From: Microcoleus sp.
GTDB lineage: Bacteria > Cyanobacteriota > Cyanobacteriia > Cyanobacteriales > Microcoleaceae
Reading direction: 5' to 3'
Assembly (NCBI GenBank): GCA_042408215.1
Contig: JAYFMW010000010.1
Span: forward strand, 64,001 to 128,000
DNA length: 64,000 bases
The notes beneath the pieces are model-generated. The model had not been told where the DNA came from. It did no database searches and saw nothing but the letters and a program-made list of their open reading frames with translations. Positions 24,533-38,690 of the stretch are shown piece after piece. Numbering within the stretch: position 1 is the first letter of the stretch; the number at the start of each line of letters is the position of its first letter. A program made the translations under genes and the position numbers.

Positions 24533-24676
24533 TTTACAAATCGTTCCAAAACGCTACACTTCTACAAATCATAAGGCAAACTTCAGGCTTATGCTTAACA
24601 ACAGTAACCAACTAGAGCATCAACGCCCTAGTTTAAGGCCACACAACACAACTCAACTGTTTTCACCGCCAAAACC

Positions 24677-24925
24677 GTCAGGAACCCCGTTCTTAAGAGA
24701 CGGGGCTTGTAAGAGTAATCAAACAAGCCGTTCTGACCAGCTATCGTCTTAACTGACTACGTTTTTTGAGTCACGACACCGGGCGAATGCGAAGCTAGTT
24801 CCTTGCTCTGTCGCTGGTGGTTAAACAGTTTTAAGGTCACTGAAACAGTGCTGCCAGCCGGCGCAAGCTCATTAAACATTGGCGAAGCTAACATTACCCC
24901 GAAAGGGAGGCTACCTAAGTAGCAA
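24677..24925 (+). ncRNA. HEARO / omega-RNA scaffold
   Basis: Motifs GACCAGC, GACTACGTT, ACACC..GAATGC..GCTAGTTCC..GCTCTGT, GTTAAACAG, ACAGTG, AACATTGGCGAAG, TTACCCCGAAAGGGAG; compensatory changes relative to the second copy. Confidence 0.8.
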
Positions 24926-25076
24926 AACACTATGCGATCGCGGGCTGTAAGATTTGAAACGGTAACTGTCCCGTTGAAAGTGCATTACAAAAGTACACCG
25001 AATTAAGCAGTCCCAAGGCGGTAGTGATAACTGTAAAGCCGTCCTAAAAGGACGGGGTTTCAAACCCATTTTTCTG
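24677..25076 (+). mobile_element. 400-bp non-autonomous IS200/IS605 (IscB-type) element lacking iscB
   Basis: 5' end GTCA plus hairpin CCCCGTTC-TTAA-GAGACGGGG; 3' hairpin AAAGCCGTCC-TAAAA-GGACGGGGTTTC then ATGA; homologous copy at 38291-38690. Confidence 0.85.
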
Positions 25077-25928
25077 ATGATTGAAAAAATATTAGTAGCC
25101 GTCGCCGGTCGCGGTCTGTGCGAAGAGATGTTTAATATGTTGATGGACATCCCTTCCTTGCAAAAAACCTCTGTCACCGTCTTGCACGTCGTGCCGCCCC
25201 AAGTAACATCCGATGGTATGGCCGACAAGTTGGAAGAAGGAGGCAAGATTTTAGCACAAGCCATCCAATCCTTAAAAATAGATCCCAGCAGAGTTAATCC
25301 TCGACTCAAACAGGGAGACCCCAAAACCACAGTTTGCCAAGTCGCAGAAGAAGAACAATCCGACTTAGTAATCATGGGTTCGCGGGGATTTGGCAGACTG
25401 CAATCAATTCTGGAAAATTCGGTCAGTCAGTACGTTTTCCAGCTAACATCCCGGCCGATGCTGTTGGTAAAAGACGACATTTACGTCAAAAAAATCAAGC
25501 GCGTCATGGTAGCGATCGACAAATCCGAATCCGCCAAACAATCCTTGGATCTAGCCCTATCTTTAGTCAAAGAAGTTGACGGCGGACAGATAATTTTAGT
25601 ACACGTCACCAAAGATTTGACCGGAAAATCCACTGAAGATTTAACAGCAGGTGCTGAAAAAGACCCCGTACTAGCGCCCGCAGTAGCACTCGCGAAACAA
25701 ATGGGAGTTAGCTACCGCTGTGCGAGCGCCACAGGCAAGCCAGGGGAAACAATTTGTCGGTTTACAGACGAAATGAACGCCGACTTATTAGTGATTGGTT
25801 CACCCGATCGCCGTCCTAGCGTTGCCAAGTCCTTTATCGATCTCGATCGACTCCTCGGAAACTCTCTGTCAGACTACGTGCGAGTCTACGCCAATTGTCC
25901 CGTATTGCTAGCCCGGACGACCGGCTAA
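25077..25928 (+). CDS. Tandem-domain universal stress protein
   Basis: KILVAV, DLVIMGSRG, second domain RVMVAID..DLLVIGS..CPVLL. Confidence 0.9.
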   Translation: MIEKILVAVAGRGLCEEMFNMLMDIPSLQKTSVTVLHVVPPQVTSDGMADKLEEGGKILAQAIQSLKIDPSRVNPRLKQGDPKTTVCQVAEEEQSDLVIMGSRGFGRLQSILENSVSQYVFQLTSRPMLLVKDDIYVKKIKRVMVAIDKSESAKQSLDLALSLVKEVDGGQIILVHVTKDLTGKSTEDLTAGAEKDPVLAPAVALAKQMGVSYRCASATGKPGETICRFTDEMNADLLVIGSPDRRPSVAKSFIDLDRLLGNSLSDYVRVYANCPVLLARTTG

Positions 25929-36703: not shown

Positions 36704-38290
36704 CTACACAACCACTTCGACTTTCACCTCATCTTCGAGCGCGATTTTCTCCTGCAAAAACAGTGCGACTTGCTCCTCAATTTCTCGCCTCACAATATCG
36801 CGATACTCCACAAAGTGCTCGATTTGCGCGCATACCGCCAGATAACTACTCACCCCACCTAAATTGTATCGGCACATATTCCAGAGATTGCGCCAAAACT
36901 GCCAACGAGTTTTGCGGATGAAACCCTGCCGCCAACAGATAGTCAAAAAGGCACGAATCACGATCCAATCGATCGGTTTATTTGCCCTTTTCCCTTTATT
37001 TGGATAAGTCGCTTCGCCCAGAATACGGTAGTGTCGATAAGCGCGATCGAGAAATTTTTCTGGATCGTACAATTCGTCGAATGCCTCGACAAATTCGCGG
37101 GCAATTTCTTCTAGCGGGCGAGTCGGGACAAAATTCATCAACGTAGTTTGGTTGATATTAGCAGATTTACTGCGAAGCCGCCCTTCCTTTGCCAGTCGAT
37201 GCCAGAGTGCTGTATCCGGCAAGGCTTGCAGCATACTAAACAGTGCAGTCGGAATTGAAGTTTGCTCGACAAACTTGACAATTCTCGCCCCAGCACCTGT
37301 TTTCTCGCCATCAAAGCCGATGATGAAACCAGCCATTACTCGCAAGCCCGATCGGGTAATTGCTAGTACGGCATCGCCGAGAGAATCTCGCGTGTTTTGA
37401 TGTTTTTGAGTCAGCTTTAAACTCTCTTCATCTGGTGTTTCAATTCCCAGAAATACAGCACCAAAATTGCATTGCACCATCATATCCATTAATTCTTGAT
37501 CCTGTGCTATATCGACAGATGCTTCCGTCGCAAAGGAGAAAGGATATTGATGCTCTACCATCCAGGGTAGGAGCTCTTTTAGAAACAGTTTGACATTGCG
37601 TTTATTCCCGATAAAATTATCATCAACCATGAAAATGCTGCGCCGCCAGCCTAACTCATAAAGGCGGTTGAGTTCATTGAGCAATTGTTCTGGTGCTTTG
37701 GTGCGCGGTTTGCGGCCGTAGAGGACAATGATGTCACAGAATTCGCACTGGAAAGGACATCCCCGCGAAAATTGTACCGACATTTCGGCATAAGCATCAA
37801 ATTGCAGCAAATCAAATCGAGGAATCGGGGTGGTGGTAACATCTGGCCTTTCGCCGTTGGCGCGGAATATGCCAGATTGTTCACCTCGGGCGATCGCATC
37901 CACAAACATTGGTAAAGTAATTTCACCCTCATCTAGAATCAAATAATCTGTGCCAACATCTGTCACTTCGTTGGGTAAAGCGGTAGGATAGGGGCCGCCC
38001 ACAGCAACTCGTTTACCCCGCCGTTTTGCTTCCTGAATCTGAGCTAATAAATCTTCCTTTTGGACGATCATCGCAGACAGAATCACCAATTCTGCCCAAT
38101 CCCAGTCAGCTTCTGTCACTGAACTTACATTGCGATCGACTAACTTGAATTCCCATGCTTGGGGTAAAATAGCGGCTACTGTTACCAATCCTAGCGGGGG
38201 TAGCATGGCTTTGCGATCGAGTAATGCTAGGGTTTTCTCAAACGACCAAAAGCTTTTGGGAAAGAGAGGATAGAGGAGTAAAACATTCAT
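36704..38290 (-). CDS. B12-binding radical SAM protein (DUF4070 C-terminus)
   Basis: PPLGL, VAVGGPY, SRGCPFQCEFC, VDDNF, GFIIGFD. Confidence 0.9.
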   Translation of the reverse strand: MNVLLLYPLFPKSFWSFEKTLALLDRKAMLPPLGLVTVAAILPQAWEFKLVDRNVSSVTEADWDWAELVILSAMIVQKEDLLAQIQEAKRRGKRVAVGGPYPTALPNEVTDVGTDYLILDEGEITLPMFVDAIARGEQSGIFRANGERPDVTTTPIPRFDLLQFDAYAEMSVQFSRGCPFQCEFCDIIVLYGRKPRTKAPEQLLNELNRLYELGWRRSIFMVDDNFIGNKRNVKLFLKELLPWMVEHQYPFSFATEASVDIAQDQELMDMMVQCNFGAVFLGIETPDEESLKLTQKHQNTRDSLGDAVLAITRSGLRVMAGFIIGFDGEKTGAGARIVKFVEQTSIPTALFSMLQALPDTALWHRLAKEGRLRSKSANINQTTLMNFVPTRPLEEIAREFVEAFDELYDPEKFLDRAYRHYRILGEATYPNKGKRANKPIDWIVIRAFLTICWRQGFIRKTRWQFWRNLWNMCRYNLGGVSSYLAVCAQIEHFVEYRDIVRREIEEQVALFLQEKIALEDEVKVEVVV

Positions 38291-38690
38291 CAGAAAAATG
38301 GGTTGAAACCCCGTCCTTTTAGGACGGCTTTACGATTTCACTACCGCCTTGGGGCTGTTTAATTTGGTGTACTTTTGTAATGTACTTTTGGTGGGACAGT
38401 TACCACCTCAAATTTCGCAGCCCTGTACGCATAGTGATTTGCTACCGAAGTAGCCTCCCTTTCGGGGTAAGGTTAGCTTGTCGGTCAATGTTATAAGAGC
38501 TTGTGCCGGCCGAAAGCACTGTTCCAGTGACCTTAGAACTGTTTAACCTTCAGCGACAGAGCGGGGAACTAGCTTCGCATTCCGGGGTGTCGTGACTCAA
38601 ATAACGTAGACCTCTAAAGTCTTAGGCTGGTCAGAATGGCTTGTTTGATTACTCTTACAAGCCCCGTCTCTTAAGAGCGGGGTTCCTGAC
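38291..38690 (-). mobile_element. Second 400-bp non-autonomous omega-RNA (HEARO) element
   Basis: Reverse complement begins GTCAGGAACCCCGCTCTTAAGAGACGGGGCTTG and ends AACCCATTTTTCTG|ATGA; colinear with 24677-25076. Confidence 0.85.
38440..38690 (-). ncRNA. HEARO / omega-RNA scaffold, copy 2
   Basis: Same motifs as copy 1, with compensatory substitutions in the stems. Confidence 0.8.

Follow-up and report, generated by a model that had tools for sequence, protein, structure and literature searches.

The type of mobile element considered here, found in filamentous cyanobacteria, is already known; the RNA fold that it carries, which we call cassette X, matches no catalogued RNA family. In the portions of the published reports on which we draw, ISC elements of Microcystis and others use the target N|ATGA (Kapitonov et al. 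2016, PMC4810608). For HEARO, the corresponding portions of the work of Meers et al. (2023, bioRxiv 10.1101/2023.03.14.532601) describe that this RNA abuts the right end of the transposon, that the guide lies outside the element, 5' of the scaffold, and that the production of guide RNA needs outside transcription; they also add a stem-loop located downstream of the Rfam model RF02033. Protein-less transposons of this guide-RNA type are usually seen as simple deletion derivatives. Here, an RNA fold under selection replaces the nuclease gene.

The window, i.e. the whole stretch of 64,000 nucleotides that was analysed, contains two HEARO (RF02033) scaffolds according to an Rfam scan, at 24677-24897 on the plus strand (copy 1, 141.2 bits) and at 38467-38690 on the minus strand (copy 2, 139.4 bits), the gathering score being 83. 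The alignment of the two copies starts at the first HEARO base and runs to a common end in TTTTTCTG; ATGA follows in both, after which the sequences diverge. A metatranscriptome contig from run X4 (one contig, depth 4) represents the empty site, as it joins 24676 to 25077 and the 400 bases in between are absent. Because of this contig, we place the bounds of copy 1 at 24677-25076, with ends GT...TG and the target N|ATGA, and in all aligned copies ATGA is located directly 3' of the element. With hairpins at its ends, no protein gene, site-specific insertion without duplication and an empty site, copy 1 has the hallmarks of the PATE-like protein-less elements of the IS200/IS605 superfamily. The features of both copies are as follows.

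24533..24560, plus strand: promoter-like site of the host gene (TTTACA-16-TACACT, 9 of 12 positions, a consensus match only), candidate source of read-through, about 117 bases upstream of copy 1
24661..24676, plus strand: host leader bases, unconserved between the two copies, which would be the guide of the omega RNA if the guide position described by Meers et al. applies
24677..25076, plus strand: mini-transposon copy 1, protein-less, 400 bp, ends 5'-GT...TG-3', bounded by the empty-site contig and the alignment of copies
24677..24897, plus strand: HEARO / IscB omega-RNA scaffold, RF02033 model positions 1-211
24685-24705 and 25038-25056, plus strand: subterminal hairpins at the two ends of copy 1
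24898..24923, plus strand: scaffold-terminal hairpin CCC-GAAA-GGG, vestigial iscB Shine-Dalgarno sequence GGAGG and variable hairpin P0, from predicted folds
24910-24923, plus strand: hairpin P0, whose arms differ between copies while the pairing is kept
24923..25028, plus strand: cassette X, copy 1, with P1, P2, P3, hairpins P4 (loop TAACTGTC) and P5 (loop ATTACAAAA) and invariant joining strands, delimited by covariance model R1 (115.1 bits, G000:C10:88923-89028) and covariation
25029..25076, plus strand: transposon end (left end in IS200/IS605 terms), with the hairpin 25038-25056, a small hairpin at 25055-25067, a T-run and a weak terminator-like site, common to many elements of the genome
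25077-25080, plus strand: ATGA target and start codon of the host gene (25077..25928, from the list of open reading frames), which encodes a 283-aa protein
38291..38690, minus strand: mini-transposon copy 2, 400 bp, aligned to copy 1
38337..38441, minus strand: cassette X, copy 2 (model R1, 122.7 bits, G000:C10:102337-102441)
38287..38290, minus strand: ATGA target and start codon of a B12-binding radical-SAM gene (radical-SAM family matches; the frame stays open over 501 codons or more)

The 283-aa host protein shows weak matches to UspG/F/E, all of them under the NCBIfam curated cut-offs, and is possibly a universal-stress-family protein. The longest open reading frame within copy 1 has 57 aa. 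An antisense frame of 154 aa (24911-25375, minus strand), which extends across X and the transposon end into the beginning of the host gene, is most likely spurious. Since in the full-length copies the iscB ATG follows within about 20 bases, the stem-loop added by Meers et al. probably corresponds to the CCC-GNRA-GGG hairpin at 24898-24907.

Cassette X has a length of about 105 nt and consists of a long interrupted stem (P1-P3) that closes a three-way junction bearing two hairpins. In copy 1, the outer stem cacta/tagtg pairs 24928-24932 with 25022-25026, the stem GGGCTG(T)/(G)CAGTCC pairs 24942-24948 with 25007-25013, and the stem GATTTG/CGAATT pairs 24951-24956 with 24999-25004; the hairpins are AACGG-TAACTGTC-CCGTT (24958-24975) and GTGC-ATTACAAAA-GTAC (24980-24996). 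The equivalent of the former hairpin in copy 2 is GGTGG...CCACC, with three pairs swapped and the loop unchanged. These stems and hairpins had been described in an earlier note on this DNA, and all of them are indeed present in the sequence of both copies. The same note had stated that X contains no conserved reading frame, which is borne out by the 24 codons that follow the shared ATG in copy 1 versus 10 codons in copy 2, and that both copies fold alike, which agrees with the ViennaRNA predictions: the segment alone is predicted to fold as described (z = -2.5), and the fold is retained in the minimum-free-energy and centroid structures of the whole element in both copies. The invariant internal loop of X, in which ACA lies opposite CAAG and is closed by a U-G pair, presumably resembles a GNRA-tetraloop receptor. 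Copy 1 carries GCGATCGC at 24934-24941, in the invariant strand between P1 and P2, where most copies have GCGTACA; this variant, present in 7 of 61 sequences, is an octamer that we take to be the highly iterated palindrome of cyanobacteria.

A covariance model was built from 14 X copies of this genome, and the main alignment, fitted to that model, comprises 67 model matches from many genomes, 61 of them distinct. Among the 61 distinct copies, 94.9% of the cells pair, and both sides have changed in 23 of the 30 pairs of P1-P5; slid registers gave 33-41% paired cells and none of 500 shuffles attained the observed values. When P3 is left out, 97.1% of the cells pair and 17 of 26 pairs have changed on both sides. 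Because the main alignment leans towards the model, an independent MAFFT and RNAalifold run was carried out on 65 sequences; in this run P1, P2 and the two hairpins emerged again, and 13 of 21 pairs had changes in both partners. A first MAFFT alignment of 14 sequences gave 13 of 29. X thus shows compensatory changes above the controls, as is characteristic of a conserved structured RNA, and the selected structure that the earlier note had proposed from two sequences is now supported far more strongly by the covariation of 61 distinct copies. In a distant copy, L104 (41.6 bits), the stems of P1 and P4 are new but the loops are unchanged.

Conservation is concentrated outside the helices, with 22 of 45 unpaired columns invariant versus 16 of 60 paired ones. 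Loop 1 reads TAAYTGTC and loop 2 A-NN-ACAAAA, and the strands ATGCGTACAGG and CCAAGGCGGTA are nearly invariable. P3 is the weakest helix: nine of the 61 sequences are without P3 pairing and have CTCCC in its 3' strand. This CTCCC variant (alignment A4 columns 128-131; e.g. L017, L007 and L048) is complementary to the vestigial GGGAG(G) upstream of X. The kissing interaction that the earlier note had suggested between the two loops finds no support, since for GTAA/TTAC the TT of loop 2 varies (TT in 27, TC in 8, AT in 8 and AC in 6 of the 61 sequences, others in the remainder) without a compensating change in loop 1, and TGT/ACA is invariant. A mutual-information scan for tertiary or long-range covariation in X returned just the helices and one extra P1 pair, and a HEARO segment complementary to loop 1 showed no covariation with the C/T of that loop. 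In same-site comparisons between species, the similarity of X roughly equals or exceeds that of the 5' flank in all five pairs whose flanks are recognisably orthologous, a weak hint, as the pairs are few and the figures are affected by indels. For pairs that share a host gene, the identity of X is 0.82-0.83 versus 0.93-0.94 for the host coding sequence in some pairs, where its divergence appears about as expected for weakly constrained DNA.

X also lies outside what is catalogued. As stated in the earlier note, it is no part of the HEARO model, the RF02033 matches ending at 24897 and 38467. In agreement with the same note, cmscan against Rfam 15 assigned it to no family: at the gathering score, HEARO was the sole family detected in the window, and a search of 24880-25090 at E values up to 10 gave unrelated models only, the best being three matches with E values of 5-8 (a CRISPR repeat, a snoRNA and Acido-Lenti-1). 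That X might be a decayed iscB remnant, which the note had named as the case against its proposal, receives no support from blastn-short and tblastn, which show no likeness; against 14 iscB and 6 isrB elements, the best E values were 0.036-0.4, with matches of 9-15 bases. A likeness seen by eye between the start of isrB and the ATGCGTACAGG strand was not supported by blastn. Two further candidates were rejected: a promoter, as no sigma-70-like site was found inside either element, and a hammerhead ribozyme, as the junction strands (A / GAAA / AC) by eye misfit the hammerhead core and no Rfam match was obtained.

What does occupy the same place as X is the nuclease gene. This genome contains 70 HEARO matches, 64 of them above the cut-off. 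Downstream of the 69 matches of at least 180 bases we found 18 intact and 6 broken iscB genes, 20 copies of X, 21 copies of a different cassette, which we call cassette B, and 4 others. Thus, X is present in none of the 24 iscB-bearing copies versus 20 of the 45 others. The same holds for an isrB-type family, in which X is present in none of seven loci with an isrB reading frame versus three of five protein-less loci. In the full-length copies, the iscB ATG lies 6-9 bases after GGGAGG and the iscB stop codon is directly followed by the same transposon end as that of the X elements, so that X occupies the place of iscB, as the earlier note had proposed. X lies between the guide-RNA scaffold and the transposon end and never adjoins a nuclease reading frame; it appears only where the nuclease gene is gone. 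A true deletion derivative, L106, which retains the 3' end of isrB, is quite unlike X.

Furthermore, X behaves as a module. In most loci it is found behind HEARO; in L044, L080/L092, L057, L091 and L104 it is found behind a different scaffold, in which RF02033 has no match even at E < 0.001 (three scanned: L044, L080 and L057). This other scaffold precedes reading frames of 331-344 aa in full-length copies, which we regard as IsrB-like because the one frame scanned against Pfam matched RRXRR only and not HNH. The transposon end of the window copies directly follows the isrB stop codon in full-length IsrB-type elements, and the transposon ends found with X are of at least three kinds. In a tree of the HEARO copies of this genome, which is rough owing to the short sequences, X-bearing copies are interleaved with cassette-B copies. 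Based on the two scaffolds, the several ends and this interleaving, X folds and is kept independently of the scaffold. That it has moved among scaffolds of the IscB and IsrB types and among several ends implies a function that is needed once the reading frame is gone.

Cassette B (21 copies, e.g. G000 C6:921701-921919, minus strand, plus 136 bases downstream) resembles X in its position between scaffold and end, in its end types, in its interleaved HEARO lineages and in stems that vary between copies while pairing is kept. Its sequence, on the other hand, is unrelated to X, and it has no junction but three simple hairpins, of which two share an identical CAACCATA loop and the third carries a GNRA loop. 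A third kind of cassette, neither X nor B, consists of short hairpins (GGGGGATAAATCCCC and others) after a protein-less HEARO (G000 C3:172214-172427, plus strand). An IsrB-like multi-copy family was observed at L091-L106 (genomes G001, G004, G014, G020 and G030; e.g. L103:463-1494, minus strand), with a scaffold of about 215 bases that opens with a HEARO-like end hairpin, and with the transposon end and ATGA target of the window copies. At L093/L094 (genomes G030 and G004), two species differ at one and the same host gene: one has a full IsrB-like element there and the other a stump, which consists of the scaffold and 25 bases of isrB fused to ATGA, the transposon end being lost.

The elements insert immediately 5' of ATGA start codons, in the sense orientation and without target duplication. 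Of the 70 elements in this genome, 49 have a recognised end, and in 34 of these the ATGA opens a reading frame of 70 codons or more; among the 47 X elements with recognised ends (out of 67 rows, from many genomes) the frame reaches at least 70 codons or is open to the end of the locus in 42; random ATGA sites of this genome open such a frame in 18.9% of cases. Examples are 25077-25080 (plus strand) and 38287-38290 (minus strand) in the window, and L012, L014, L016, L039, L044, L052, L057, L077 and others. Twelve host proteins were picked by hand and compared with NCBIfam profiles. In nine of them the alignment starts at residue 1-4 of the protein and at position 1-3 of the profile (S16, PntA, PetM, PsbD, PsbA, ACP, HemA, CobQ and an aminotransferase); of the other three, GatB starts to align at residue 7-10, and two give no information. 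The host genes include psbA, psbD, rpsP, petM, acpP, hemA, gatB, cobQ and pntA. The earlier note had supposed that X lets the element live inside mRNA leaders; our observations do not bear this out, because full-length iscB elements sit at start codons equally well without X, and residence in a leader therefore does not need X as such.

As to the strand that carries the fold, the alignment contains 273 G-U cells versus 27 A-C mismatch cells, and because of this excess the fold belongs to the HEARO-sense strand, i.e. that of the guide RNA. Insertion of IS200/IS605 elements takes place 3' of the target, as seen on the strand that the transposase handles. Here the target is located 3' of the element on the HEARO-sense strand, with HEARO at the right end, so the transposase handles the opposite strand. 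The fold is thus not on the strand that the transposase handles, which argues for RNA rather than DNA, and RNA is likely the carrier of the X fold. Metatranscriptome contigs (runs X1, X2, X4 and X5), which may contain DNA, match the locus exactly at 24891-24978 and 24953-25061, and contigs of host genes extend into the transposon end, although contigs give neither transcript ends nor strand. The summed contig depth of the HEARO core is several-fold to about 100 times that of X, a comparison of little weight, since contigs give no fair measure of depth and HEARO is common to all element classes.

The covariance model found 22 copies of X in this genome, namely 20 behind HEARO, one with a wrecked scaffold and one that is 5'-truncated. 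Of 36 further genomes of the genus, 34 carry X, as do 3 of 24 further families of the order; sampling across the phylum yielded X in 16 of 151 genomes, all of which belong to this same order. An exact-pattern scan of genome contigs gave five matches (Pelatocladus, Rivularia and Nostochopsis), each behind HEARO, and the same scan gave no match in viral contigs. That the scan finds far fewer copies than the model is due to the exactness of the pattern and to a possible omission of near relatives. There are up to 29 X copies per genome. Six of the 22 copies in this genome (G000 C26:114190-114320, C29:75688-75843, C12:36918-37046, C5:596092-596242, C6:981510-981633 and C30:395316-395412) carry a nested insert of 25-50 bases with the motif CGCGTAGCCGA, in either orientation and in loop 1 or loop 2, so it seems that a still smaller mobile repeat targets the loops of X. 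In view of these nested insertions and of the nine sequences without P3, many resident X copies may lack function.

X is therefore a self-contained RNA fold under selection in protein-less derivatives of IscB- and IsrB-type transposons (OMEGA, IS200/IS605 superfamily), in which the right end with the guide-RNA scaffold comes first, then X and then the left end. Since the guide lies outside the element, transcription would enter from a host promoter, and X would consequently be transcribed as the middle of a chimeric leader with the order host 5'UTR/guide, scaffold, X, transposon end and host AUG. Our best guess, which we put forward tentatively, is that X may act as a cis-acting boundary and stability module of this chimeric leader transcript. 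X would then supply in cis what the translated nuclease reading frame did. As an independently folding boundary, it would prevent the scaffold and the host initiation region from misfolding together, and after cleavage of the leader it would give a stable structured end to the guide RNA (at its 3' side), to the host mRNA (at its 5' side), or to both. Guide RNA would live longer until a nuclease made elsewhere binds it, and the cost of residing before essential genes would be lower. Candidate sources of machinery that could act in trans are at hand: this genome has 20 matches to the Y1 transposase (PF01797), 13 of them above 80 bits and with open frames, and IscB reading frames of 428-448 aa were found in five of the five other X-bearing genomes tested. 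The invariant loops and joining strands might serve tertiary packing or a specific partner besides. It should be noted that full-length elements need nothing like X around their reading frame, which is why we only infer that X compensates for the latter. Furthermore, the approximately 22 invariant unpaired bases fit a specific partner or catalysis better than an insulator or stabiliser, and because they argue for something more specific, other explanations are considered below.

The first of these is that X is a putative docking platform for a protein, i.e. IscB or IsrB from autonomous copies, or else the Y1 transposase or a host RNA-binding protein. We consider this somewhat unlikely as a whole; if it applies, the nuclease of autonomous copies would be the most attractive partner. 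X would give the protein-less elements preferential access to machinery supplied in trans. A docking platform would be in line with loops and joining strands that are nearly invariant while the stems turn over, with the confinement of X to protein-less elements of two nuclease families, and with the abundance of X- and cassette-B elements, which reach 20-29 copies per genome while plain deletion derivatives are rare among the loci examined. However, X follows two unrelated scaffolds with different nucleases (IscB and IsrB), which makes a single nuclease-specific contact less likely, and the different cassette B takes the same place.

Another explanation takes X as a putative RNA-processing element, either a new self-cleaving ribozyme or a signal for the host RNase III, E or P, that frees the guide RNA from the mRNA. 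The position of X, at the very boundary of a guide RNA and an mRNA, both of which need to work, would suit such a role, as would the compact junction fold with its many invariant unpaired bases and the interrupted stem of 21 bp, which resembles RNase III substrates. Nevertheless, we judge it unlikely, given that no Rfam ribozyme family was matched at E values up to 10, that the junction is unlike the hammerhead core, and that full-length elements manage without X. Retrotransposons use ribozymes on co-transcripts, which provides a parallel for the ribozyme form of this explanation. That a putative new ribozyme class or a dedicated RNase guide excises the guide RNA from the host leader and leaves the mRNA translatable is, in our view, doubtful.

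X might also be a candidate riboregulator of the downstream host gene, through the sensing of a ligand, temperature or ribosomes, or as a standby or translation-enhancing site. It is located in the leader of the host gene, its invariant TTGA has three possible partners that are mutually exclusive, and three-way junctions with two side-by-side hairpins recall small riboswitch aptamers. Yet the host genes are functionally unrelated (psbA, rpsP, acpP, hemA, cobQ, a possible stress-family protein and others), X lies 50-115 bases from the AUG, separated from it by a variable linker and by ends of different types, and no alternative terminator/anti-terminator pairing was seen, which leaves this role improbable.

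Very unlikely is a role of X as single-stranded DNA in transposition, where it would aid the Y1 transposase or set the spacing of the ends. IS200/IS605 elements do move as single-stranded DNA and use hairpins, and the 9-base string CAAGGCGGT is common to X and a hairpin arm of one end type, but the ratio of 273 to 27 for G-T over A-C puts the fold on the guide-RNA strand while the transposase works on the other strand, and full-length elements are without X. Finally, that X is a functionless decaying remnant or chance filler is hardly credible: its confinement to one cyanobacterial order among the sampled genomes and the many interrupted or degenerate copies would fit, but not the compensatory changes in 23 of 30 pairs, the loops that are invariant across cyanobacterial families and the lack of likeness to iscB or isrB.

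Insight into the role of X could reveal how guide RNAs that lie within host messages mature or gain stability, and X could provide compact IscB/IsrB editing constructs with a natural module for insulation or processing. It is in any case an uncatalogued structured RNA in the leaders of central genes, such as psbA, psbD, rpsP and acpP.

The comparison with known systems brings out what is shared and what differs. HEARO (RF02033) directly adjoins X on the same strand and presumably in the same transcript. On the other hand, its match ends 26 bases upstream of X, X is absent from every iscB-bearing copy, and X also follows a scaffold that RF02033 does not match. There is a likeness to non-autonomous ISC and PATE-like elements, for which the portions of the reports drawn on here (PMC4810608; bioRxiv 10.1101/2023.03.14.532601) describe the same subterminal hairpins and start with 5'-GT, the same insertion directly 5' of ATGA with no duplication of the target, a high copy number, the supply of transposase and nuclease in trans, and HEARO at one end with the guide outside. 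Those portions deal with the ends and the IscB guide RNA and make no mention of a second conserved RNA fold, nor was an RNA cassette that replaces the nuclease gene found in the portions of the literature on HEARO and protein-less elements covered by our search. The IStrons, i.e. IS605/IS607-type elements with a group I intron, differ from the X elements, as far as the portion of their description used here goes (bioRxiv 10.1101/2023.11.20.567912), in that the latter have no intron features, no match to an Rfam intron and no sign of splicing, and sit before start codons rather than inside genes. Nonetheless, the two belong to the same superfamily, both carry a second structured RNA besides the guide RNA, and both must coexist with the expression of their host at the RNA level.
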